A stretch of 41,370 nt of DNA from a virus: positions 1 through 41,370 of the IMG/VR virus record IMGVR_UViG_3300045988_025431. One strand, 5' to 3'. This document shows, in pieces, positions 2,673 through 40,916 of the stretch (within the stretch, counting starts at the first letter, position 1; every line of letters starts with the position of its first letter). Made by a program: the position numbers and the translations under genes. The notes beneath the pieces are model-generated. The model made no database searches. It worked only from the letters and a program-made list of their open reading frames with translations, and was not told where the DNA came from.

Positions 2673-5600
2673 TTATTTCCCGGCCAAACGGGCGTTCTTC
2701 CGGACTTTCTCGTTTACAAGCGCCTTGTTGTAATGCCGGATGCTTTTGCCTACCCCCAGATACTCAAAAAGTGCGTTCCGCTGCTTCTCGCTCAAACCGG
2801 GCATATTGTACACCGCCTGCATGATCAGCAGCCCCTTGCTGTTGGGGATCGTCTCCCCGTTTCTGTCCTTGACGCTTTCCAGATCGGACACCTGCGTTTT
2901 CAGCGCCACATAAATTTCCGGCTTAATGCCGTACTTCTTCTGTGCCTCCTGTGCTTTCAACACCCACTTGTCCGTGATCTCATAGGTTTTGTCCGTCTCG
3001 TGCAGTGCTGTCTTTTTGGCGTAGGTCTCCGCGCTGGACAGGGCCTTGTCCTTCTGCTCGTCAGTGAAGGCCCTGAACACCTGGCTGTCCTCCAACCCGG
3101 ATTCCATGGAGCTGTAAAGCGCGGACTTCCTGCGGCTGTATACGATGTAGTCATCGGAGCTGAGATCGTTTTCCGTAAATTTGTCCTCGCCCTCGCCGGT
3201 GCCGTACCGGTCTTTCGCACCAATCAGACTTGCAGCCGCGTCCGGGAGCCTGAAATCCTCATCGTTTTCCCGTTCCTTGTCCAGCTTGCTCCGCATACTG
3301 CTGTCAACGGAGCTGTTGTCCAGCGCCATGAAGTCTTTTAGCTCTTTGCGGATGTGTTCATAGGTGGTCAGGTCGCCCTGCTCCAGCGCCTTGAACGCGA
3401 GATTCAGGTACCGGCTTTTGTTTGCGGTGCTGTAAATATTGTATGTGAATTTCTCAAACTCATATTCCAGCGCCACGCTGCCGGTAGCTTGGACAGCCGT
3501 CCGGACTGCCGCCATTGCGTCCCGCTTGATGTTGGCCACCGGAAGGCCGAAAAGTTTAGAACAGGCTGCAAACATATTTGCCAGCGCTTCTTCTCTGGTC
3601 TTTTTGCCGCTGCCGCCCATGCTTGCGGTGAAATCTTTAGAGGCAGATACAATGTCAGAAAACACCTGCATGTCCGTCCGGGATACGCTGTACCCCTGCG
3701 TCAGGGAAAGAATATCCTTTACAAACGGGATGCTTCCAAGCTTGTTGACGTTACTCCCAAGGTTTCCTTCCAACACAATATGCTGCAGCAGCTCCTTGGT
3801 GGCCTTCTCGTCACCGGTAATGCCGGTCAGTGCCGTCAGGAACTTTTCCCAATAATCCTTGTCCGGATCATCGTCACGCCCTGCGTCTGCAATGCTCTGG
3901 GCCAGTGCGTTAACTACGTCCGTAACCAGCAAAGCAGCTGCCGCACGTCCCACGGTTTTAATGGCCTTGCTCCGCTTGGCAGGGTTCTCTTCATAGCGCA
4001 TATTGTCCCATGCCCGCATGAACACGTTCAGGCTCATAATGGGTTCGCCCATGAACGATGTCGCCTGCTTGGCAAGGTCGCTCTTGCCGCGCATGATGTT
4101 GGAGCGCTGCAAAATGCCGTCTACCACCTGCGTCTGGTCGATCATGTCGGTGAACACTTCATTGACTGCGCTGTAAAATTCGCCGCTTCCGGCCCGCAGA
4201 TTGGGCCTCTCCCGCTTCACCTGCCACTCGCAGGCGTTCCAGAGTGCGCCCCAGGTAACGGCGTCCGCTTTTCCTGCGGGAGCGCCAGCCTTGTCATTGA
4301 TCTTGTTGGCGATGCCCTCCTTGCCGTAAAACCGATCATTCAGGGTATAGGGGGAGGAAATGTCAAAGCTGCCCACATCCTTCCGCATGGCAATGGGAGA
4401 ATGCGTCAAAGCTTTTTCCCAGCCGTTTCCCTTCGTCACGCCGCCGGTCAGTCCTCTTGCCATGTCAGCAGGGTCCAATACGGCGGATGCCCGGAAAAAG
4501 GCGGTCGGCTGCTGGATGACCACACGCACGTTCGCACCGACGGCAGCGCCCTTAAAGCTCCCGATGCCTTTTGCGAATTTATCCGTCAGCGGTTCAAAAT
4601 CCTTTGTTTTGATTCCGTTCTGGATGTCGCCCATCAGCTTCTGCCAGTACTGCTGAGATCCCTGTCCGCCCTTCTCTTCCAGGAAGCCCTTTACGGTCTG
4701 AACGAGATTGCCTTCACTGTCCCGGAACTGGAAATTGTACAGCCGGTTCGCGTCCTCCATGGGGCACAGCCACGCTGCGTAGTCAATCATATCGGATGCG
4801 TGGTCCGCGAAGGTGTCAAACACCCCTCGGATGCTCAACGGCGTCGCCGCGTTGGGCTTTACAGCCTGCGCCATGCCGATATTCTTAATGGAGCGCACAT
4901 TCCCGCTGTCCTTCTCCTGCGAACTGTGCAGTGCTTCCTTTGCGGATTTGATGGGCCAGTAGTCCTGCTCCGTGAATTTCTTATAGCCGTAGGCTTTCAT
5001 GCTGGCCTCGTTGCCGTAGTTGGCAAGAACACCGGTGGTCAGCTTCTGCAAACCGTCCGCGATCCTGATCTGCTCCGGGGTCAAAACCCTCACAATGGAC
5101 TGGATATCCTCTGCGGAAAGATGGATCACGTCCGTTCCTCTGGGGATCTTGGTCTTGCCGGGGATCTTGATCTCCGGCTGCACGATGCCGCCTTTCAGCA
5201 GGTGGTCCTCCGCCTGCTTGCGTTCGCTCAGAAGATACAGCTCCATGGCCTGTGCCGTGGTCAGGTCCAGCTCATGGCCTTCCGTTGTGGTGAAATGGTG
5301 GACTTCCTCATTCATGGACGTCACCGCGTTTTCGCGGATGCCGGTTTTCGCGTCGCCCAGAATCTGGTGAACCTTCTCCGCCACATCCCGCGCCATGATC
5401 TCCTGATGGTCCTGCGCGTTCCGCAGCATCCGGTAAATGTCCTTTCCGGTCTGGCCGAAGTGGGCAAAGAACGTATAAGGCGTTTCCAGACTGATCGCCA
5501 CGTTGTTCCCCAGTTTCCGCCGCCGGGTCATGCCGTCCATGCGGAGCGCATCAGCAAACTGCTTGGTGGTCTCGAATTTCTCCGACGCTAGCGTCTTGCC

Positions 5601-8600
5601 TGCCGTGGTCACGGAATGCTCCACGGATTTCAGCACGTTCCACATAGTTTTCAGCTGCTCCGTGGTCAGATCCGCAAGGCGGGTGTCCCCCATCTTGATG
5701 ACCTCGCTGAATCCACCGGTCACATCGTCGCCGCCCAGAAGAGACGGGTCCACCACCATATCGCCATCCTGGGCGATCTTCTGATACTGCTCCTTCAAAT
5801 TCTGGAACGCCACCGTCCGGTTCGTCGGCGTGCCAGGTTCCTTGTAGATTCGCTCCCCTGTCACGGGGTCCAGCGTAAAGGACCGTGCATTGGGGCTGCT
5901 CTCCTGATTGATGCTTTCCAGCACCTTTGCCACGGCGGAGCGCATATCTTCCGGAATGTGCTGGTTGTCCGTGGGCCGCAGCAGCTTTTGAGACAATGCG
6001 CTGGCATGGCGAACAATCTTAGCCCGCAGTTCTCTCCGCTTCTGGTTGTCCCGCCGGGTCACGTCCTTCTCCCGGTAACGCTCCTTCAACGTCTGTACCT
6101 GCTCCGCACGCCGGGTCCGTTCCTTTGCCAATGCCTGCGCCGTGCTTCTTAGCCGCTTTGCGTCTTGTCTGCCTTGGGCCATCTGTCCAGCTAAAAAGGC
6201 GTCATTTGCCGCCTGTCTGCCCTGAAATCTGGCATCCTGCACCTGCTCCGCTGCCCGGTCCGCAAAGGTCTTTTTCGTCTGAGGAAGGTCAAAGAACCGG
6301 TCCATAATGTCATTGGAGATAGACGCCACGGCCTGTCCCATGTAGCCTTCAAAGGGGTTGTACTCCGTCACCTTGTACAGCCGGTTCGCCACGTCCGCGA
6401 TCCGCTGCACCTGATCGGAGATGTTGGTCTCCTGTGCCTCGTTGAAAAACTCCGGATACTGGCTGGACAGCTCGGAATAGATCTGGTCAACATTGGTGTG
6501 CTCGCCCTTGCTGATTTTCAACTTGCCGAACAAGCTCTTGCGAAACTCGTTGAAATCCGTGATCTCGGCGGCATCCGCTTCCGTCAGCGTCAGCTTGATG
6601 TCTTTCAGATACTTCCGCAGACCAGCGTATTCCTTGAATGCCCGATCGTCCACCTCTACGGCGCTTTCCGCGATCCGCTCCGCAATGGCATCAGACCGTC
6701 TCCGCGCCTCTGCATAGGTCAGCTCGTCCTTGCCGTCCTTGCCGCTGGCAATGTAGTCATACAGGCTTTGCAGGTCTCCGGCAATGTCGCTGCCGCTGAT
6801 CTCTGCGCCGTAGTCCTTTACCAGCGCGTCCGCCGCCTTCTGAACGGATTTCCGGTCGGTGGTTACGCCCTGAGACCGTCTGGTCTGGCCCTTCCAATAC
6901 TCAACCCGCTCTTTCAGGCTCTCGTTTTCCCGTTTCAGCGCCGCAATCTCCTGCGCGTTCTCCGTGCCTTTCAACGATAGGAACTGCGCCAATTCCGAAA
7001 CATGGGGCTTCGTGCCATCTTTGAAATATGCTTTGATGTCATTCAGCACCTTGCTGGAATGGGTCCCCCTGGGATATTCCGTGCTGGAAACTGTCTGCCC
7101 ATCCGGGGTGTCCAGATCAAGAATGACTTCGCCCCGGTTTTTACCGATAAAGTCCGACAGTGCATCCATCTGGGATTTTGTTGGCTCCACAGAGAGGTTG
7201 ATCCCGCCGCTTTCCGGGGAAATGCGGATATTGCCCTCGCTCATAAACTGCACCATAGAGCCGGAATAATCATCCCCACCGTAATCCTCACCGATAGCGT
7301 CCCGGATGTCCCGGTGGTCTACGGTCCGGTATCCGCCAGGGCCGCCCTCGTGCTTGCCGGAGAAGTCCAGCTTTGTGCCTGCCGGGGTCAGATATCCGGT
7401 CTCGTTCCAGTTGTAGGTTTTGCCGAAAAACGCGATTGCCTTTTTCCGGTGGTCCCGCTGCTCCGCATCGCTGTAATCTTTCAGGGAATATCTGGTCTTT
7501 TCTTTCGCCTTTTCAAAGGCTTCTTGCATGGCGGTCTTACCGCTGCCCTCTCCAAAGGAAAGATTCCCATTGACATCCCGGTTCACATATGTTATTCTAC
7601 CAATAGAACCATACTTGGTTAACCCCGATGGCAATTGGAGCCGTAGGGCCTCTAACCAAGCATCGGTTCTTTTTTTGTTTGGATCAACGTATAAGATTTC
7701 AGAAGTATTGATCGCGTTTTGTGCGTTTCGCTTGCCATATGCGCTTGCGATTTTGGCGAAATCAAGGATCTCTCCCCGCTTATCCTGCGGGCGCAATTCC
7801 AATGCAACCAATACGGGGGAACCCTCTGCATCCATTACTTCTCCGTAAATCGTGATACGATTCGCCACGGTCTGGGATTGCATGACTAAAATGGGATACT
7901 CTAAAATCTGCGGCACATTTTTAATGACATCCGCTGTCATTTCTGGATGCTTGGACAGGATTTTTGCAATTTTGCTCTGATCCCAATAGATCTGATAATC
8001 GTTAACCCCGATAGACTTTAAAGCCTCAGAAGTCGTACCAACCTTGAAGTAACCGCCGGTTTTCAGGTTGCCTTTTTCATCCCTGTCATTTACCCAAGCA
8101 TCAAACTGTCTGGTGAAATCTTTATTCAGGGAATATCTCGCCTCACCGTCCTCCGTGGCGGTGTTTTTGCTGTTCAGACTTTCCGCCTGCTTGCTGGCCG
8201 CTTCAAATGCCGCCTGCAGCTTGCCCTCCACGGTCTGGGCCTGTCGCTTGGCTCTGCCGGTCAGCTTGCCCACGATCTCGTGGATGGCGTCCCGCAGCTT
8301 TTGCAGCAGCGTCCGGTCTGCGCTGTGCTTCCGGATAAAATCGTCCAGCACGTCGCTGTTGGCAATCATCTCACCGGCGTAGTTGGCGGTAGCCTCGTCC
8401 AGCGCCTGTTCGTAGCTGGTTTCAACGCCCGCCCGGTTGTACTGGTCAAGCAGGATGTTCGCCGCTTCCTGCACGTCCGGCATACTGGTAACAGCGTTCC
8501 GGAACGCCCGGTACTGCTCCGGGGCCAACTCCTGCACCCGGTGCGTCCATTCATGGCCGACCACCTGCAAAGCCGGGTCTGCTGCGTCCTTGGCAATCAG

Positions 8601-10619
8601 AACGTCGCTGCCGTTGATCTGGCCGTTGGCCTGCCCGCTCAGCACCTGATCTACCATCCGCGTCCGCACGCCCAGTGCCTTTGAAACAGTGTTTACCTCG
8701 TCGGCAACGGTGCTGTCCATTTCACGGGAAACATAATCGTCAAACACAAGGCCGCTGTCCGTTCCGGCGGTCTTGGCAAACTGCGCCGCCCGCTTTTCTC
8801 TTGCAAGAGACGCTGCCGCGTCATTCTGCCCTGCCGCATACGCCGCAAAGGATACCGCGCTGGTGCTGTTTGGATTCTTCTGGTTGGTCATGCCTGCGTG
8901 ATACGCCCGCAGAAATTCCCCAGCGTAGTCACCACGGTCCGTCCCCTGATACGCCGTCTGAAACGCCTTCCTGCCGCTGTCCCCCAGCTTGTCTGCAATA
9001 CCGGTAAAGGTTTTCTGCACGGCGGCTTCTCGCTGCCGCAAAACCTGTTCCTCCATGGAAACGGGATTGCTCACTGTTTGCCGCTGGACGGCTTCCTGAA
9101 TGGCCCTCTGCGCGCTTTCCTGTGGGACCTGTGCGTCCATTTGTGCGGGGGTGGTACGTGTACCCTCCTGAACGTCTGCGCGCTCCTGTACGCCCTGCTG
9201 TGCGTCCTGCTGTGTGGCCTGCTGTGTGGCCTGAGTGGAGTATTTATTTGTGCGGTAAATGTTTGCGCTATCAAGTACAGTAGACGGTAATCCAGCTACG
9301 CCAAAAGACAATGCTGCCGATGCCGCCGTATCTTTTAACCGGTCAATAACTTCTCCACTGGAATATGCCCACTGCCCGTTATCAGTCTTATTTGCAATCT
9401 GTGCGCCAGCAATAGTACTGCCTTCCTGCAAAACTTCCTGTAAAGTTTCATTCCCTAAAGAAAGAGACCGATCAATCAAATATTGGCTTAGTCTTTTGGA
9501 GGCGTTTCCCGTAAGTGGGTTGTTCTTCAAAATTTGTACGGACTTTGCCAGTTCGTCTAATTGGAGTGCTTCCAGCCCTGCATTAACGCCGCCAACAATG
9601 GCTGCAACGTTTCGTGCGGTCTTTTCGGACACACCATTTTCCAACATTTCATTATAAGCAAGCCCCGCTTCGATCTCATAATTCTTTTCCGCGGAAGCAA
9701 TTTTGAGGCCCGTCATAAAAGCGGTTGGAACTGTAACCACTTCTTCAGGAACAAGCGCCTGCGGGCCTGCTTGCCCCGCAATAGCCGCACCCGTTGCCGC
9801 CGTTGTTCCCGCTGCCAATGCCGTCGGGTTCGTCATCTGGTATACCTGTTGCCCCAGTAATGCGGCTGCTCCGGATATTGCTTCTGCCAGTTTTCCTTGC
9901 GGAACAAATTTATAATCTTCCCCCGCCAGAATATCTGCATACTTTTGTTTATCGGTTTTCCGCCCATTCATGCTTTTATAACTCTCTTCGCCATAGCGAG
10001 AATTATAATAGCCTTGCTTGGCGGAATTGATTAGCAAATCTTTAAGATCGGCCTCTCTATACCCCCCAGAAGCTAAAAGTTCTTTGTTTTTTGCTTCTTT
10101 TTGAGCTTCCGCCTGTTTTTCGATTTCGGCGGTCAATCTGGTGCGAGTAATATATTGCTTTTCAGTATCTTTAAGCTGTTTAGCATCGTACCGGCTATTG
10201 GGAGTTGCCGCGTTCCGGCTCACCTGCCCCAGCTGACCGGCATAAGAAGTCTGCCGAGACTGTGCATTTTCCGCAACGCGGCCCGGTGCCTTATTCTGCG
10301 TGGCAATCTCAAAGAAGGACTTTTTCTGTGCAGATGGCTTGTTCTTCCCGGCGTTCGTGGTGCTTTTTCTACCGCCATTGGTGGCCTTCCACTGCTGACG
10401 GCTGGGCGTAGTGCTGTTGCTGCGCGCCGGGCCTCGCACAGTAGGTTTTTGCGTCTGGGTTGGAGTCTTAACATCAGACAAATCCCCGCCCCACGCAGTC
10501 GTTACTTTTCTGAATACCGGCTTATCAGAGGAACGGGCAGTATTTGCCCGCTCCTCCTTGTTCTTTTTCTGGCTTTCCGCCGCAGTTGTGACTTTCCGAA
10601 ATACAGGCTTTGTCGCCAT
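2673..10619 (-). CDS. giant polyvalent virion/ejected protein (2648 aa) with a Zn-metallopeptidase HExxH motif
   Basis: Uninterrupted ORF with a TAAGGAGG RBS. HEWTH lies at residues 689-693 (8541-8555). A HPEMT...ILEYP nuclease-like module spans about residues 855-1000, and a YLTPAGTKLDFSG...DHRDIRD module about 1060-1200. It sits last in the ejection-protein position. Confidence 0.85.
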   Translation of the reverse strand: MATKPVFRKVTTAAESQKKNKEERANTARSSDKPVFRKVTTAWGGDLSDVKTPTQTQKPTVRGPARSNSTTPSRQQWKATNGGRKSTTNAGKNKPSAQKKSFFEIATQNKAPGRVAENAQSRQTSYAGQLGQVSRNAATPNSRYDAKQLKDTEKQYITRTRLTAEIEKQAEAQKEAKNKELLASGGYREADLKDLLINSAKQGYYNSRYGEESYKSMNGRKTDKQKYADILAGEDYKFVPQGKLAEAISGAAALLGQQVYQMTNPTALAAGTTAATGAAIAGQAGPQALVPEEVVTVPTAFMTGLKIASAEKNYEIEAGLAYNEMLENGVSEKTARNVAAIVGGVNAGLEALQLDELAKSVQILKNNPLTGNASKRLSQYLIDRSLSLGNETLQEVLQEGSTIAGAQIANKTDNGQWAYSSGEVIDRLKDTAASAALSFGVAGLPSTVLDSANIYRTNKYSTQATQQATQQDAQQGVQERADVQEGTRTTPAQMDAQVPQESAQRAIQEAVQRQTVSNPVSMEEQVLRQREAAVQKTFTGIADKLGDSGRKAFQTAYQGTDRGDYAGEFLRAYHAGMTNQKNPNSTSAVSFAAYAAGQNDAAASLAREKRAAQFAKTAGTDSGLVFDDYVSREMDSTVADEVNTVSKALGVRTRMVDQVLSGQANGQINGSDVLIAKDAADPALQVVGHEWTHRVQELAPEQYRAFRNAVTSMPDVQEAANILLDQYNRAGVETSYEQALDEATANYAGEMIANSDVLDDFIRKHSADRTLLQKLRDAIHEIVGKLTGRAKRQAQTVEGKLQAAFEAASKQAESLNSKNTATEDGEARYSLNKDFTRQFDAWVNDRDEKGNLKTGGYFKVGTTSEALKSIGVNDYQIYWDQSKIAKILSKHPEMTADVIKNVPQILEYPILVMQSQTVANRITIYGEVMDAEGSPVLVALELRPQDKRGEILDFAKIASAYGKRNAQNAINTSEILYVDPNKKRTDAWLEALRLQLPSGLTKYGSIGRITYVNRDVNGNLSFGEGSGKTAMQEAFEKAKEKTRYSLKDYSDAEQRDHRKKAIAFFGKTYNWNETGYLTPAGTKLDFSGKHEGGPGGYRTVDHRDIRDAIGEDYGGDDYSGSMVQFMSEGNIRISPESGGINLSVEPTKSQMDALSDFIGKNRGEVILDLDTPDGQTVSSTEYPRGTHSSKVLNDIKAYFKDGTKPHVSELAQFLSLKGTENAQEIAALKRENESLKERVEYWKGQTRRSQGVTTDRKSVQKAADALVKDYGAEISGSDIAGDLQSLYDYIASGKDGKDELTYAEARRRSDAIAERIAESAVEVDDRAFKEYAGLRKYLKDIKLTLTEADAAEITDFNEFRKSLFGKLKISKGEHTNVDQIYSELSSQYPEFFNEAQETNISDQVQRIADVANRLYKVTEYNPFEGYMGQAVASISNDIMDRFFDLPQTKKTFADRAAEQVQDARFQGRQAANDAFLAGQMAQGRQDAKRLRSTAQALAKERTRRAEQVQTLKERYREKDVTRRDNQKRRELRAKIVRHASALSQKLLRPTDNQHIPEDMRSAVAKVLESINQESSPNARSFTLDPVTGERIYKEPGTPTNRTVAFQNLKEQYQKIAQDGDMVVDPSLLGGDDVTGGFSEVIKMGDTRLADLTTEQLKTMWNVLKSVEHSVTTAGKTLASEKFETTKQFADALRMDGMTRRRKLGNNVAISLETPYTFFAHFGQTGKDIYRMLRNAQDHQEIMARDVAEKVHQILGDAKTGIRENAVTSMNEEVHHFTTTEGHELDLTTAQAMELYLLSERKQAEDHLLKGGIVQPEIKIPGKTKIPRGTDVIHLSAEDIQSIVRVLTPEQIRIADGLQKLTTGVLANYGNEASMKAYGYKKFTEQDYWPIKSAKEALHSSQEKDSGNVRSIKNIGMAQAVKPNAATPLSIRGVFDTFADHASDMIDYAAWLCPMEDANRLYNFQFRDSEGNLVQTVKGFLEEKGGQGSQQYWQKLMGDIQNGIKTKDFEPLTDKFAKGIGSFKGAAVGANVRVVIQQPTAFFRASAVLDPADMARGLTGGVTKGNGWEKALTHSPIAMRKDVGSFDISSPYTLNDRFYGKEGIANKINDKAGAPAGKADAVTWGALWNACEWQVKRERPNLRAGSGEFYSAVNEVFTDMIDQTQVVDGILQRSNIMRGKSDLAKQATSFMGEPIMSLNVFMRAWDNMRYEENPAKRSKAIKTVGRAAAALLVTDVVNALAQSIADAGRDDDPDKDYWEKFLTALTGITGDEKATKELLQHIVLEGNLGSNVNKLGSIPFVKDILSLTQGYSVSRTDMQVFSDIVSASKDFTASMGGSGKKTREEALANMFAACSKLFGLPVANIKRDAMAAVRTAVQATGSVALEYEFEKFTYNIYSTANKSRYLNLAFKALEQGDLTTYEHIRKELKDFMALDNSSVDSSMRSKLDKERENDEDFRLPDAAASLIGAKDRYGTGEGEDKFTENDLSSDDYIVYSRRKSALYSSMESGLEDSQVFRAFTDEQKDKALSSAETYAKKTALHETDKTYEITDKWVLKAQEAQKKYGIKPEIYVALKTQVSDLESVKDRNGETIPNSKGLLIMQAVYNMPGLSEKQRNALFEYLGVGKSIRHYNKALVNEKVRKNARLAGK

Positions 10620-10631
10620 GTGTCAGCCTCC

Positions 10632-12482
10632 TTACATCTGGAATCCGTAATTGGACGCAAGCTGTGTGACCTGCTTCTTCTGGGAATCGGAGAGATAATC
10701 CCAATACTCGTCAACAAACTTGTTCAGATTCTTTTCCGCATTAGCGGAGCTTTCCTCCGACAGGGAAATCATCAGGCTGTTGTACGCCCGGTTGAAATTC
10801 GATGCAGACGCGGGGTTGTTGTAGCCATAGGCGCTTTCCAGATAATCGTCGCTGTATCCCTCTTTGTGGAACGCATCCAGCACTTCCGGCGTAAAAATGC
10901 CCTGTTTGGCATTATCCTTTGCGACGCTCAGTTTCATGCCGCTATCCCCGCTTTTCTTGCTTCCACTGCTCTGACGTCCACTACTCCGACTGCCGCTCTG
11001 TGCCTTTGCCGTCTGAGCGATCTGATACGCCTGCCGCATCTTGTTAATCTGGCTGTCAGTGTAGCCCAGCGCCTTGTAGCCGGAGAAATCACCGTAGGCC
11101 GCAAGGTTGTCCGCCTGCTGAGCCAGCCGGTTATATTCGTCCTGAGACATGTTGTAGTCCCATTCCTTCTGCTTCCACTGATTGGCAAGTGCGTCCTGCG
11201 CCTGCTGATAGGCAAAATTCCGGTCCGTGTTCCACTGGTTCAGCTTGTCTCCGTACTCGCCGTACTCCCGGTTGTAAGCGTCGTTCAGAACACCCAGATT
11301 GTTCAGCTTGTCGCTGCGGTCCTGCTGGTACATTTCTTGCGCCGCCTGCTCCAGCTTGCTCATCCAGTCGTTGTATTCCTGATTGGCAACACTGGCCGCG
11401 TAGGAGGAAGCCAGACCGCCGGTGCGGGAGGACACCTGCCCCAGCAGATCGTTCATGCCCATCTCGCCGTTGGCGGCGTACTGGTCTTTCAGGGCAGCAT
11501 ACTGATCTCCCTGTTTCCAGTCCGCCAGATTGCTGTTGAGAATCTGGTCAATCAGCGCCCGCATTTCGGGATCGTAGGTATAGTCAAAGCTCGGCCTCCC
11601 GGCGTCGCTGGTGTTGAACCCGTTGTTGACCAGCCCCTGCAAAACGTCTGTGGGGGTGTATGTGCCGTTAAACTCGTCGTAAGACTTCACCAGTCCCGCT
11701 GCCTGCGCCAGCGGGGATGTGTCCGTACCCATCAGATAGCGGTAATACCCTGTCGAAGCGTCCTCCGGGTTGGTGGAAAGCCCTAACTGCGCCCGCCTGT
11801 CATTCACGCGGGATAACGCTCCGTTGTCTGTCACATAGCCGTTTTTGTCGATGCTGTAGCCGTACCCCGCCCGGATAGCGTTTGCCGCCTGGTTAGCCTG
11901 GTCCCCGGTGATTTTCCCCGCCTGCATCTGTGCCCGAATGTCCGCGATCTTCTGCTTATCTGCGGCGGAAAGCATCTCGTTGTCCGTCCATGCCCCGCTT
12001 TTGTTATAGCTGCCGTTCCCCGCGTTGATATCCTGATGTGGCGTATAATCCACTGTTCCTTTGGATGCCTTATAGGCATAACCGTTATTGTCGTAGAACA
12101 CGGTATATCCGTTAGAAACGGCATATCCGCCCGCTAGGTCAGGACGTCTGCTCATATCCGCGCCTACCTGATAGGTCACGCCGCCCTGCTTGTAATTCTT
12201 CTGCTGGGAATTGCTGGTCGGTACGCCGTAAATGCCTCCGCCGTTGTTGCTGCGGTCATACTCAATGCCGTTGTAGCTGCCCTTGGAACTGCCGCTGGAA
12301 GAACCGCCGTAGGTCTGGCTGTAGGTCTTATTGGAGCCAGTCATATTCGGTTCCTTGCCGCCGTAGCGGTCATTGATCTTGTTCTGCCGCTCCTGCGTCA
12401 ACTGTGCCCGTTCCGAAGAGGATAGGTCCGTCCGCTGCAATTCCTTGGAGTAGTCTTTGTTTTTGTCATAATATCCTGCCAT
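10632..12482 (-). CDS. internal virion / ejection-type protein (616 aa, low-complexity Gly/Ser/Asn/Tyr/Gln-rich)
   Basis: Track ORF whose start overlaps the stop of the upstream gene. The position follows the needle-like gene, as in P22-type gene order. Confidence 0.55.
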   Translation of the reverse strand: MAGYYDKNKDYSKELQRTDLSSSERAQLTQERQNKINDRYGGKEPNMTGSNKTYSQTYGGSSSGSSKGSYNGIEYDRSNNGGGIYGVPTSNSQQKNYKQGGVTYQVGADMSRRPDLAGGYAVSNGYTVFYDNNGYAYKASKGTVDYTPHQDINAGNGSYNKSGAWTDNEMLSAADKQKIADIRAQMQAGKITGDQANQAANAIRAGYGYSIDKNGYVTDNGALSRVNDRRAQLGLSTNPEDASTGYYRYLMGTDTSPLAQAAGLVKSYDEFNGTYTPTDVLQGLVNNGFNTSDAGRPSFDYTYDPEMRALIDQILNSNLADWKQGDQYAALKDQYAANGEMGMNDLLGQVSSRTGGLASSYAASVANQEYNDWMSKLEQAAQEMYQQDRSDKLNNLGVLNDAYNREYGEYGDKLNQWNTDRNFAYQQAQDALANQWKQKEWDYNMSQDEYNRLAQQADNLAAYGDFSGYKALGYTDSQINKMRQAYQIAQTAKAQSGSRSSGRQSSGSKKSGDSGMKLSVAKDNAKQGIFTPEVLDAFHKEGYSDDYLESAYGYNNPASASNFNRAYNSLMISLSEESSANAEKNLNKFVDEYWDYLSDSQKKQVTQLASNYGFQM

Positions 12483-14807: not shown

Positions 14808-15833
14808 TTATCCGTTCCAGTCGGCCCGGGTCTCCCTCACATCAATATGCGTAAAGCCCTTCTGACTGTATACGCCCACGCCGCCCCAATCGGGCATCAG
14901 CTGTCTGGCGTAGGCCGCCACCGCTGCCGGGGTCTGTCCCCGCACGGTGATGTCCGCCGCCGTGCCGTAGCAGTGCTGGCTGTGGGCCACGCCGCCGACC
15001 TTGGTATTGTACTGTGGCGTCCGATACCCACTGTTGATGGTCACAGCCGCGCCGAAGTGACTGCGGATGCTCTGCAAAACCATCACCAGCCGGGGGGCTA
15101 CCAGCACGGCATCGGAGCCGTCCTTGCAGGCAAATTCTTTCACTTTAAAATGGGTGGACAGCTTCTTGTTGCCGTCCATCGCCTTGGAATAGGCGTTGAT
15201 CTCTACCATGGGTTTCTCTCCTTCCGGTTCAAATGCGTCCCCGCTTTTCAGTTTCCAGACGAGGAAGAACGGGATCACCCGTCCGTCCCCGGTAAAGCCC
15301 TTGCCTGTCGAATCCATGAAGCAGGTAGACCCACCGCCGTCCATCATAATGGCATTGTCCCATCCGGACGCGGCCAGCAGGTTCCGGAGCTGTTCCGGCG
15401 ACCGCCGGACCTTGCTCACATAGTAGGCGAACCGCCCGTTCTTGGTGCCGATAGCTGTTCGTGGCGCACGGTAGCGCATATCCGCTCCGCAGTGGATGGG
15501 GTTGATCTTCTTCCCGCCGATGATGAGGTGGACACACTCCATGTAGTTCCGGTCCCCGTTTGGCACGGTTTTCACGCCGAAATCCCCCGGGGTGTCCCAG
15601 CTGATGGCCCACGCCCGGTAATTGGGGGCCTTGTAGACCTTACCGTCTGCCTTTAAATGGCAGGCCGGTGTCTGATTCCGCAGGAAAATGGAGCCATTGC
15701 AGATAGCGTCCCCGCCCGCCTCCGCCAGCATCTTCATCAGGTTGGCCGTGGTGGAGCGGAGACGCCGCTTATTGAAATAGATCTTCAAAAATTGGAGATC
15801 GGAGAGCGGGACGGTGCCCGCTCTCGTGCTCAT
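14808..15833 (-). CDS. two-domain endolysin: N-terminal phosphodiester-glycosidase-like domain plus C-terminal M15-type peptidase
   Basis: N-terminal motifs are RTAIG...MMDGGGST. The C-terminal motif is SGYRTPQYNTKVGGVAHSQHCYGTAADI. It lies immediately downstream of the holin with a 4-nt overlap. Confidence 0.8.
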   Translation of the reverse strand: MSTRAGTVPLSDLQFLKIYFNKRRLRSTTANLMKMLAEAGGDAICNGSIFLRNQTPACHLKADGKVYKAPNYRAWAISWDTPGDFGVKTVPNGDRNYMECVHLIIGGKKINPIHCGADMRYRAPRTAIGTKNGRFAYYVSKVRRSPEQLRNLLAASGWDNAIMMDGGGSTCFMDSTGKGFTGDGRVIPFFLVWKLKSGDAFEPEGEKPMVEINAYSKAMDGNKKLSTHFKVKEFACKDGSDAVLVAPRLVMVLQSIRSHFGAAVTINSGYRTPQYNTKVGGVAHSQHCYGTAADITVRGQTPAAVAAYARQLMPDWGGVGVYSQKGFTHIDVRETRADWNG

Positions 15834-16285
15834 GTGTGAGCCTCCGAATTCTGTTTTCCCTGATCGCTGGCCTGGCGGATGGCATCCAGCATATTCTTCA
15901 CAAAGGCGGGGTAGGGGACCCCCATCACTGCCGTATTCTCCAGAATCGACAGGCCCTCATTTGCAATAAAGAACATGCAAACAGCGTCCCGTACAAAATC
16001 GCTGGATGTGGCCTGATCCAATAATGCCCCCATCCAGACCAGCGCCAGCATCACGCACTTCTTCGCCAGCCCCTTGAACCCGGCGTCGGAACTCAGCGCC
16101 CCGGTGCCGCTCTTGCTGGACTTATGCCAGATGGCCGCTACCATCCATCCGGTGGCGTAGTCCAGCACCATGAAACAGATCAGCACTTTCAGCGCCATAT
16201 CCCAGCCCCCCAGAGCCTGGGCGATGGCGGAGCCAGCCGCAGCCAGCACCGCCAACACCGTATTTTTGATGTGTAAAGCGTTCAT
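15830..16285 (-). CDS. holin (phage_holin_4 / TcdE-like)
   Basis: Several TM segments and the motif FFIANEGLSILEN. The start was moved to ATG 16285, which follows an AAAGGAGGGG RBS. Confidence 0.8.
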   Translation of the reverse strand: MNALHIKNTVLAVLAAAGSAIAQALGGWDMALKVLICFMVLDYATGWMVAAIWHKSSKSGTGALSSDAGFKGLAKKCVMLALVWMGALLDQATSSDFVRDAVCMFFIANEGLSILENTAVMGVPYPAFVKNMLDAIRQASDQGKQNSEAHT

Positions 16286-16305
16286 AGTACCCCTCCTTTC
16301 GGTGG

Positions 16306-16626
16306 TCACACCCGCACGGCCTTCTCAGGATGACCGCCCTCATCCCAAGTAATATCGTAGGTGCCCTCCGGGGTCTCCACCCGCACGGTCTGACCGGCCT
16401 TCGTGACATCGTACCGCATATAATCATGCAGGTGCTTCACGTCCTCCGGCTCCTTCTCCGCCTGGTTGAAGCCCTCGGCCATCTCAGCCTCGGTCCAGTT
16501 GGCAACGCCGCCGTCGGAATTCAGGTGGAAGTTGGCACCGGCCTCTTTCAGCTCCTTGTTGATGGTCTCGATGGTCTTGCCGTTCTTCTTGCCCTCGTTG
16601 ATGATGTCAGCAAACTTCTTTTCCAT
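16306..16626 (-). CDS. hypothetical protein (106 aa)
   Basis: Track ORF trimmed to ATG 16626, which follows an AAAGGGG RBS. Confidence 0.55.
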   Translation of the reverse strand: MEKKFADIINEGKKNGKTIETINKELKEAGANFHLNSDGGVANWTEAEMAEGFNQAEKEPEDVKHLHDYMRYDVTKAGQTVRVETPEGTYDITWDEGGHPEKAVRV

Positions 16627-39896: not shown

Positions 39897-40916
39897 GTGA
39901 AGATACCAAAAGCAACAAAACTCCCATCCGGAAGTTGGTATGTAAACGTCATGGTAAATGGGCAGCGGATTTCCATCACCATGCCCACGAAGAAGGACGC
40001 GGAGCGGGAAGCGGCTGCTCTGAAATCCGGCGTCAAAAGCGCCCGGCATAATATAGCCCTAACCGTGACGGAAGCATTTGACCGCTATATAGACAGCAAA
40101 AGCGCCATCCTGTCCCCGGCCACCATTGCCGGATACAGGCGCATCCAGAAGAATTTACTTGAGCCTATCGCTGCGTATCCGCTATCCAACCTCACGCAGG
40201 AGCAGGTGCAGCGGTGGGTGAACCAGCTCACCAAGCAAGGAAAGAAGCCAAAAACCGTCTCCAACGCTCACGGCCTGTTAAGCGCCGTTATCGGAGCCTA
40301 CCGCCCGGAAATGGTTCTCCGCACCACCCTTCCTCAAAAGGTGAAACCGGAAATATCTATCCCAACCGAAGCCGAGCTGTCCGCCATATTTGACGCGGCA
40401 AAAGGCACAAAATACGAGCTGCCGATCATGCTGGCCGTCTGGCTGGGCTTGCGTGCTTCTGAAATACGGGGCCTGAAATGGGAAGATATTAACGGCGAAT
40501 ATATTTCCGTCAAGCGGGCTATCGTCCAGGGCGAAGCTGGCCCTGTCGAAAAAGGGACGAAAACTTTCAGCGGAACCCGCACCCTGCATCTGCCACCATA
40601 TCTCGCCGCGCTGATTCAGGCACAGGATCATTCCAAAGAACACATTGTAAATTTGTCCGGTCACGCCATGTATAACGGCTTTGAACGTATCTGTGAAAAG
40701 GCAGGAGTTCCCCATTTCCGCTTCCATGATCTGCGGCACATGAACGCCTCTGTCATGCTGGCAGTCGGCGTCCCTAATAAATACGCGCAGGAACGCATGG
40801 GTCACGCCACAGACAACATGCTGAAAACCGTCTACCAGCATACGATTCAGGAAGAGCAGAAAAAGTATTCCGAAGAGATTGACCAGCGCTTTGAAGAGCT
40901 GCTTCAACTCTCTTAA
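39897..40916 (+). CDS. int: tyrosine recombinase / phage integrase
   Basis: N-terminal SAM-like domain. The catalytic region has LRASEIRGL...HDLRHMNASVML...ERMGHATDNMLKTVYQH (R, H-x-x-R, H, Y). Confidence 0.9.
   Translation: MKIPKATKLPSGSWYVNVMVNGQRISITMPTKKDAEREAAALKSGVKSARHNIALTVTEAFDRYIDSKSAILSPATIAGYRRIQKNLLEPIAAYPLSNLTQEQVQRWVNQLTKQGKKPKTVSNAHGLLSAVIGAYRPEMVLRTTLPQKVKPEISIPTEAELSAIFDAAKGTKYELPIMLAVWLGLRASEIRGLKWEDINGEYISVKRAIVQGEAGPVEKGTKTFSGTRTLHLPPYLAALIQAQDHSKEHIVNLSGHAMYNGFERICEKAGVPHFRFHDLRHMNASVMLAVGVPNKYAQERMGHATDNMLKTVYQHTIQEEQKKYSEEIDQRFEELLQLS

Follow-up and report, generated by a model that had tools for sequence, protein, structure and literature searches.

A giant polyvalent protein with exchangeable cassettes and candidate cleavage tags in a temperate phage of gut Oscillospiraceae

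What does a phage gain from a single 2648-residue protein encoded at the end of its virion genes, and how is such a protein put together? The question is raised by the IMG/VR virus record IMGVR_UViG_3300045988_025431, of which the whole stretch of 41,370 nucleotides was analysed (hereafter the window); the window is probably a whole phage genome, and identical or near-identical giant proteins are found on gut contigs of about 41 kb. The giant gene starts with ATG, is uninterrupted and encodes, by translation, a protein of 292 kDa; as an earlier note on this DNA, made from its letters, had pointed out, this one open reading frame (ORF) of 2648 codons fills 19% of the window (7947 of 41,370 nucleotides, 19.2%).

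Polyvalent proteins were defined by Iyer, Burroughs, Anand, de Souza and Aravind (2017; PMC5512222), and the available text of that work describes extensive mosaicism and proposes peptidase-mediated autoprocessing for the class. The giant protein has such a polyvalent architecture, and its modules are exchanged as cassettes. With moderate confidence it can be explained as an effector carrier of a temperate podophage of gut Oscillospiraceae, in which a fixed frame holds exchangeable cassettes and which would be injected and cut at short tags on the cassette borders. The frame would consist of a basic N-terminus with a paired motif, a module with an HExxH motif and a later glutamate (HExxH+E, aa 473-831) and a helical 1431-residue body (aa 1218-2648). 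The slot between this module and the body would hold the effectors, here a MuF_C/PBECR predicted RNase and a further module termed E, and in sister phages ADP-ribosyltransferases (ARTs), PBECR5, a methyltransferase, and LPD or metallopeptidase-like modules.

Constant and exchanged parts of the giant protein

Relatives were gathered by a search of 5.8 billion proteins, which gave 480 matches, the best 120 of which are close relatives, and module borders were drawn by BLASTP mapping of the window protein against the close relatives, where the breakpoints are sharp (Table 1). Across the 120 relatives, identity in the body (segments F1 to F3) is 83-99%, mostly 95-98%, its length being exactly 1431 residues in all five genes measured, and the HExxH+E module (module C), in those close relatives where it aligns as a separate segment, is 73-92% identical, mostly 82-90%. 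Among the same 120 relatives, the slot between module C and the body holds at least 17 different cassette combinations. In the window the first cassette, module D, contains MuF_C (Pfam PF18819) at aa 883-984 (E 4.7e-20; a PBECR3 match is weak), which agrees with the toxin-type nuclease module that the earlier note had suspected at residues 855-1000, and the module that it had outlined at residues 1060-1200 is a discrete cassette, module E, bounded by the junction tags. Sister phages carry PBECR5 (E 2e-62), two ART-PolyVal variants (E 1e-18 and 3e-15), a methyltransferase-like cassette whose best match, Methyltransf_23, lies just under the curated cut-off (E 2.5e-5), LPD23 and LPD3 with a metallopeptidase-like part, and an eCIS_core-like HExxH module (all by Pfam), and several sister cassettes have no Pfam match. 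One ART cassette occurs with four different upstream and three different downstream neighbours among the relatives.

The base composition of the gene follows the same borders. GC is 0.44-0.47 at positions 7500-8100 and 0.40-0.45 at 9300-10200, and about 0.57 elsewhere; at third codon positions (GC3) it is 0.49 in module D and 0.42 in module B, 0.72-0.76 in the constant parts C, F1, F2 and F3, and intermediate (0.55-0.69) in other cassettes. The two AT-rich stretches that had been noticed by eye, and taken for recently acquired cassettes, correspond to module D and module B, respectively, both of which are replaceable modules delimited by recombination in close relatives, so that cassette acquisition is well supported.

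Polyvalent proteins are recognized by two to fifteen distinct conflict-type domains in one chain and, in phages, by a gene beside virion and packaging genes. The giant protein has MuF_C, the HExxH+E module and further discrete modules, and terminase, portal, capsid, tail and internal-protein genes lie upstream of its gene. Like the class as set out in the available text of PMC5512222, it has, here or in relatives, MuF_C/PBECR, PBECR5, ART-PolyVal, LPD23, LPD3 and metallopeptidase-like modules, so that the earlier note's reading as a polyvalent protein is supported by hallmark domains in the protein and its close relatives and by the place of the gene at the end of the virion block. No Pfam model, not even an LPD or peptidase model derived from that work, matches the 1431-residue body or the HExxH module, in which respect the giant protein differs from the class so described.

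Much of the protein falls outside curated families, as had been predicted when undescribed domains were suspected in it: significant Pfam matches cover only 102 of the 2648 residues, the whole protein has no PDB sequence match and no NCBIfam match, and no curated family covers module B, module E, the HExxH module or the body. Module E, for which no Pfam, NCBIfam or PDB sequence match was found, has a single relative in the phage database (34% identity), located inside a gene annotated as "methyltransferase" in Rhodobacteraceae phage LS06-2018-MD07, and is a candidate new effector domain. Two further Pfam-less cassettes come from the relatives P0040, P0055 and P0100; one, of about 150 residues, starts with KGKYWRPNLTQKEW... 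and directly follows the HExxH module in many relatives, and the second, of about 200 residues, starts with KELDNGQYYVKADRQ... The charged helical stretches of the earlier description are present as well, with 34% K/R/D/E at aa 1214-1560.

Module B matches PHROG 28077 at aa 243-354. All variants of it that were examined, those of the window and of P0015 and P0051 (aa 90-470), are rich in Gly/Ala small-residue repeats, e.g. GAAIAGQAG and GGALGMAPFAVRAFGGA, and their hydropathy stays below the transmembrane threshold in every case; these segments may be membrane-active or act like a tape measure.

Table 1. Positions of the giant gene, its modules, tags and motifs, and of other genes of the window
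Feature	Position	Strand	Residues	Basis or remark
Giant gene, polyvalent protein	2673..10619	(-)		ORF list and translation
Module A, basic low-complexity N-terminus, net charge +20	10149..10619	(-)	1-157	other variants in relatives
KPVFRKVTTA, copy 1	10581..10610	(-)	4-13	translation
KPVFRKVTTA, copy 2	10494..10523	(-)	33-42	translation
Module B, replaceable, Gly/Ala-rich, compositionally foreign	9204..10148	(-)	158-472	breakpoints about aa 145-158 and 449-479
Module C, constant, zincin-like HExxH+E	8127..9203	(-)	473-831	
HEWTH motif	8541..8555	(-)	H689-H693	translation
Tag 1, R-Y-S-L-N, N-ending variant	8124..8138	(-)	R828-N832	
Module D, MuF_C/PBECR-type predicted RNase cassette	7494..8123	(-)	833-1042	Pfam; exchanged in relatives
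Tag 2, R-Y-S-L-K, canonical	7479..7493	(-)	R1043-K1047	
Module E, cassette YLTPAGTKLDFSG...DHRDIRD	6984..7478	(-)	1048-1212	in most relatives, absent or replaced in others
Tag 3, F-L-S-L-K, degenerate	6969..6983	(-)	F1213-K1217	PBECR5-cassette relatives have KFSLK at the same border
F1, charged helical start of the constant body	5940..6968	(-)	1218-1560	found in 144/150 family representatives
F2, conserved all-alpha core of the body	3270..5939	(-)	1561-2450	found in 150/150 representatives
F3, C-terminal tail of the body, less widely kept	2673..3269	(-)	2451-2648 and stop	64/150 representatives
Upstream 616-aa protein	10632-12482	(-)		compared with L003, L004, L009, L010, L011
Holin (Phage_holin_4_1 type) and endolysin with NAGPA and Peptidase_M15 domains	14808-16309	(-)		
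Three tandem paralogous genes, 242/240/237 aa	16720-18893	(-)		PHROG 10993 "Hoc-like head decoration", E 1e-32 to 1e-41
Tyrosine integrase	39897-40916	(+)		Phage_integrase, E 9e-17

The zincin-like module, the body family and the N-terminal pair

The HExxH motif named in the earlier note, H689-E-W-T-H693, is present, but the comparison shows a constant architectural part and not, as had been suggested there, one effector among many. In an alignment of 29 sequences with 30-77% identity, H689, E690, H693, Q696, Y703 and E742 are invariant. Module C was detected by profile in 103 of the 132 full-length representatives of the family, and in 27 of the 29 remaining representatives an HExxH nevertheless precedes the body. 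The AlphaFold2 (AF2) model of the module has a mean predicted local distance difference test (pLDDT) score of 85.5 and shows a three-stranded sheet, the HExxH helix and a later helix with E742 (model elements: strands 128-152, HExxH helix 158-174, Glu helix 212-229), so that its predicted layout is that of a gluzincin-type zincin.

The body is matched by PHROG 22978 at aa 1214-2593 (E=0). A HMMER search with aa 1561-2648 returned 4059 clusters (50% identity) at E<=1e-3 and 2734 at E<=1e-30, and among the 150 representatives with the best scores, which are proteins of 2000-4300 residues, it is nearly always the C-terminal part that matches. The window protein has the conserved all-alpha C-terminal region of this family, whose motifs are YWPI, QQPT, LWNACE, TQVVD, FMGEP and RDDD. 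The AF2 model of the core (aa 1561-2450) is largely helical (pLDDT 74; predicted template modelling score, pTM, 0.66) and has no significant fold match in the PDB by Foldseek (best E 0.22, template modelling (TM) score about 0.1). In BFVD there are 83 matches to the core at E<=1e-3, with TM scores up to 0.73; among those shown, most are C-terminal fragments of long phage proteins of largely metagenomic origin, several of which are named after one domain, such as Nuclease, MuF C-terminal domain and PolyVal ADP-ribosyltransferase, and other names are LPD, type I restriction enzyme and N-acetyltransferase. The HExxH+E module and the all-alpha C-terminal body define a family of more than 4000 clusters, for which neither a Pfam model nor a PDB fold match nor a cultured member was found.

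At the N-terminus, the duplicated decapeptide KPVFRKVTTA is found in two copies where the earlier note had placed it (Table 1). Over the first 100 residues of the 132 full-length representatives, the best self-matching 9-mer pair has a mean score of 30.6 versus 20.4 after shuffling, and 58% of the representatives lie above the 95th percentile of the shuffles; in these, copy 1 starts at median residue 4 and the median spacing is 36 residues. The paired motif is 9-17 residues long and its sequence is specific to the lineage, with both copies changing together (including in P0122-P0270); examples are QKLDRSYF, GRFVxL, TFGEWRQQQ, KWKRSGLDAIREYEASS and SKYFQEKYG. The pair resembles a bivalent short linear motif whose sequence keeps pace with that of a partner, and a capsid-loading signal would be a reasonable guess at its purpose, nothing more. 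An N-terminal pair (GRITLTEEQKRIA / GRITLNQKQIQIA) was also observed in the otherwise unrelated giant ORF of the locus L002. The 616-aa protein encoded directly upstream has a C-terminal tail of two forms, ...DYLSDSQKKQVTQLASNYGFQM and ...QYFNSLSSKQQEELNRMLGA, which pair one each with the N-terminal motif types KPVFRKV and QKLDRSYF of the giant protein. This pairing was considered as a sign of an interaction and dropped, as there are two types only and the adjacent DNA makes it inseparable from linkage.

The border tag and its possible roles

In the inspected close relatives (2400-3100 aa), the pentapeptide [RK][FY]SL[KN] stands at nearly all cassette borders and nowhere else; the exceptions are one border with F for S, and P0021 and P0111, which have no tag by the search pattern. 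The tag was followed through the family in 150 representatives of 50%-identity clusters with bodies 38-95% identical, where [RK][YF]S[LIVM][KRN] was observed 171 times compared with 9.25 in shuffles, RFSLK being the commonest variant (48/171). Almost all tags (163/165) lie N-terminal to the QQPT anchor of the body, with a peak at the body start, and none was found upstream of the HExxH module (0/149). The extended consensus is ..NPD[IAV][RK][FY]SLK[DEG] with variable flanks, which comprise 33 upstream versus 30 downstream homology groups in 75 combinations, and no further late protein encoded in the window contains the tag. Tag 1 is located within a stretch of pLDDT <50 in the AF2 model (aa 825-837), which is presumably flexible.

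One way to read such a tag is as a recombination joint for in-frame cassette exchange and nothing else, its peptide being functionless. Indeed, the joints of the closest relatives have up to 12 bases in common (TATTCCCTGAAA), which would favour in-frame exchange, the order of the cassettes is combinatorial, and in L010 a copy of the joint stands on either side of an extra ART cassette, as expected of microhomology-mediated insertion. However, all five codon positions of the tag vary synonymously (Arg CGC/AGA/CGA/CGG/AGG; Ser TCC/TCT/TCG; Leu CTG/CTT/TTG/CTA), and a peptide that is kept despite varying codons indicates selection on the peptide itself. Furthermore, the motif persists at 38-60% body identity and across the 75 flanking contexts, and the region upstream of the HExxH module has no tag although it also recombines, which together leave a mere joint an unlikely reading.

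A second possibility is that the tag is a docking motif, either an APIM-like binder of the sliding clamp that tethers the protein to host replication or repair sites, or a dock for a virion partner. The literature found on the pentapeptide consists of APIM/beta-clamp work, in which RFSLK itself is an APIM variant peptide, with reported binding to the bacterial beta-clamp (dissociation constant, KD, below 50 uM) and reported growth inhibition on over-expression in E. coli (PMC7261172). The commonest tag variant equals this peptide, several copies per protein would give avidity, and a predicted flexible linker is a typical place for short linear motifs. By contrast, a docking motif need not mark every domain border and nowhere else, and the APIM match is a coincidence of five residues that came from a text search of the literature. 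The co-occurrence of tag and HExxH module also suits a protease and its substrate better, so that docking is quite improbable: the tag is present in 77 of 103 proteins with a profile-detected module versus 7 of 29 without (odds ratio 9.3, p 1.3e-6, statistics that ignore shared ancestry). In the sub-clade that has neither a profile-detectable module nor [RK][FY]SLK, a crude reduced-alphabet search found no alternative border tag, and many of its proteins have little sequence between HExxH and body.

According to the favoured explanation as an effector carrier, the giant protein would be packaged into the capsid via its constant parts and ejected together with the DNA. Cleavage at the tags, for which its own HExxH module is the likeliest enzyme, would then yield an 89.7-kDa N-terminal piece, effectors of 24.1 and 18.7 kDa and the 159.6-kDa body, and the freed effectors would act against RNA, protein or DNA defences of the host. 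The cassettes would be reshuffled among co-circulating phages, with the short shared coding sequence of the tags keeping the exchanges in frame. That the tag is a cleavage site for module C is proposed tentatively. The further step, by which the giant protein would be a self-processing polyprotein of a double-stranded DNA phage with standardized linkers, whose zinc peptidase frees plugged-in cassettes at [RK][FY]SLK and whose N-terminal pair and helical body form a capsid-loading and ejection device, is a rather doubtful one. RNA-virus polyproteins and the T4 head proteins cut by gp21 also hold several units in one chain with a repeated short motif and a protease in the chain. By contrast, the motif and the protease type differ here, the units are exchangeable effectors instead of a fixed replication or structural set, and the cleavage is one that we infer.

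Several points weigh against this explanation, beside the shared ancestry that the association of tag and module leaves aside. The window protein has only one canonical tag (tag 2), since tag 1 ends in N and tag 3 reads FLSLK, and the close relatives P0021 and P0111 without a tag imply that cutting at every border cannot be essential. Pfam matches to module C are weak, scattered and from single members (DUF6782 4e-5, M64 0.002, eCIS_core 0.03), and Foldseek against the PDB gave a best E of 0.1, with M1, M35 and M27 peptidases at E 1.4-2 only; given no curated family and no significant PDB fold, it is motif and topology from which the peptidase assignment is drawn. As for the body, no cultured phage carrying it was recovered by tblastn, whether the query was the whole protein or one of two distant family members, and the matches were uncultured gut fragments only. 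It has no strong hydrophobic helices (maximum Kyte-Doolittle value 1.53, none passing the usual threshold) and no similarity to known ejection proteins, so that the case for its role in packaging and ejection is purely one of position.

Genome setting, known systems and meaning

The late operon, on the strand of the giant gene, encodes the large terminase, a P22-type portal (PF16510, E 7e-30), a probable scaffold, the major capsid protein and a 729-aa tail protein, followed by three paralogous "Hoc-like" genes, a holin, an M15-peptidase/NAGPA endolysin and a 120-aa protein, and ends with a 507-aa "internal virion protein" (PHROG 511, E 4e-64), a 139-aa coiled coil, the 616-aa protein and the giant gene. 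A P22-like series of adaptor, nozzle and needle had been read into this block in the earlier note. The P22-type portal, and the coiled coil and "internal virion protein" before the giant gene, fit that description, but the holin and the M15 endolysin interrupt the series, and the capsid is nearest, among named phages, to Bacillus phage Page (about 38% identity) and not to P22; its closest matches of all are uncultured human-gut phages (up to 53% identity). A DNA search of the window against 50,697 phage records gave no match. Instead of following the internal-protein genes and the giant gene, the holin and endolysin genes precede them, in the midst of the virion genes. The tandem Hoc-like paralogues are possibly diversifying fibre or decoration proteins; in the locus L003 this stretch is arranged otherwise, with genes of 418 and 286 aa instead.

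The presence of an integrase makes the element temperate, and its relatives lie on contigs of Oscillibacter and Oscillospiraceae metagenome-assembled genomes (MAGs), one of them inside a 105-kb contig; on both counts it is a temperate podophage-like element of gut Oscillospiraceae. A temperate particle might also deliver toxic domains into non-lysogens, as was proposed for MuF-toxin fusions, and the giant protein would then be a polymorphic toxin for competition among bacteria, with which the integrase, the relatives on Oscillospiraceae MAG contigs, the MuF_C module and the exchangeable toxin-like domains would agree. However, Phage_Mu_F, the N-terminal, portal-associated domain of MuF and SPP1 gp7 minor head proteins, has no match in the protein at E<=1, and the variation is in the middle of the protein, whereas polymorphic toxins vary at the C-terminal tip; a toxin of this type is very improbable. 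Of the MuF domains, the protein has the C-terminal MuF_C/PBECR module only, itself one of the exchangeable cassettes.

Packaging into the virion and injection, which the effector-carrier explanation requires, are fairly probable by position and analogy: the gene follows those of the "internal virion protein" and the coiled coil in the late operon, a position that was counted for a packaged protein, polyvalent proteins as a class are argued to be injected in the available text of PMC5512222, and the polyvalent protein gp47 of phi24B (2811 aa) is abundant in purified virions, was not seen in the reconstruction and was proposed to be an ejection protein. Like gp47 and its 933W-type homologue of 2789 aa in phage PhiR5_2, the window protein is giant and has MuF_C, with LPD domains among its relatives' cassettes, in a temperate podovirus. 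The body was also compared with the phi24B/933W-type giant protein, and homology was rejected (hhalign probability 0.5%), MuF_C being the only module shared, and the PhiR5_2 homologue has no [RK][FY]SLK tags.

The same surroundings could suggest a mainly structural protein, that is, an internal core or conduit protein of a podovirus, of which the HExxH module digests the cell wall on entry and the cassettes are accessory. The gene closes the virion block beside the "internal virion protein", over half of the protein is a conserved helical body without an enzyme signature, all module B variants examined are Gly/Ala-rich, and the authors of the phi24B study propose for gp47 a role as conduit and a wall-degrading peptidase. 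On the other hand, the cassettes are enzyme types that act in the cytoplasm (RNase-like, ART, methyltransferase), no solved structure of an ejection or core protein matches the fold of the body, and a separate M15 peptidase/NAGPA enzyme is already encoded upstream. A mainly structural role, which overlaps with the effector carrier and does not exclude it, is accordingly given a low probability.

Other phages offer likenesses of size and position. The virion RNA polymerase gp50 of N4 and DdrB/DarB of P1 are very large proteins that are packaged in the capsid and injected with the DNA. The available text of PMC5512222 reports a metallopeptidase domain in gp50 and DdrB, and states that DdrB is processed proteolytically before packaging and gp50 is packaged uncut. 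PDB searches revealed no relation of sequence or fold between these proteins and the giant protein, in which Pfam finds no RNA polymerase, helicase or ParB-like domain; neither a polymerase family nor a PDB match links it to N4-type virion RNA polymerases. Gene position alone is comparable with the ejection or core proteins of P22 and T7, since there is no PHROG, Pfam or PDB sequence match to P22 gp7, gp16 and gp20 or T7 gp14-16 and no PDB fold match for the body. The gene of gp20 of Bacillus phage Page, a hypothetical protein of 1679 aa, has the same position at the end of a podophage structural block. As a homologue gp20 was rejected (best BLASTP E 0.035 over 61 residues), and it has no border tags.

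The giant protein is therefore of a known kind, a phage polyvalent protein, and what is new is the border tag, the HExxH-plus-body frame of a very large uncultured family and the lineage-specific N-terminal pair, none of which was found described in the available text of PMC5512222 or in later literature. Polyvalent proteins were predicted in 2017, as far as the accessible text goes, to be injected multi-effector weapons that are perhaps self-cutting (PMC5512222), and no cleavage signal or common carrier has been defined for them so far. The present family supplies a precise candidate cleavage signal and a candidate protease in the same chain, together with a natural experiment in the form of near-identical phages that differ mainly in their cassettes, so that autoprocessing of polyvalent proteins becomes directly testable. 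The cassettes without a family (module E, "KGKYWRPNL" and "KELDNGQYYV") are candidate new anti-defence activities against the abundant gut Oscillospiraceae. If the proposed mechanism is true, it would explain how anti-defence enzymes are swapped without disturbing packaging, and would suggest a design rule by which foreign proteins could be loaded into phage particles by insertion between tags. Thousands of uncultured phages would then possess a natural plug-and-play delivery of arbitrary proteins into bacteria.

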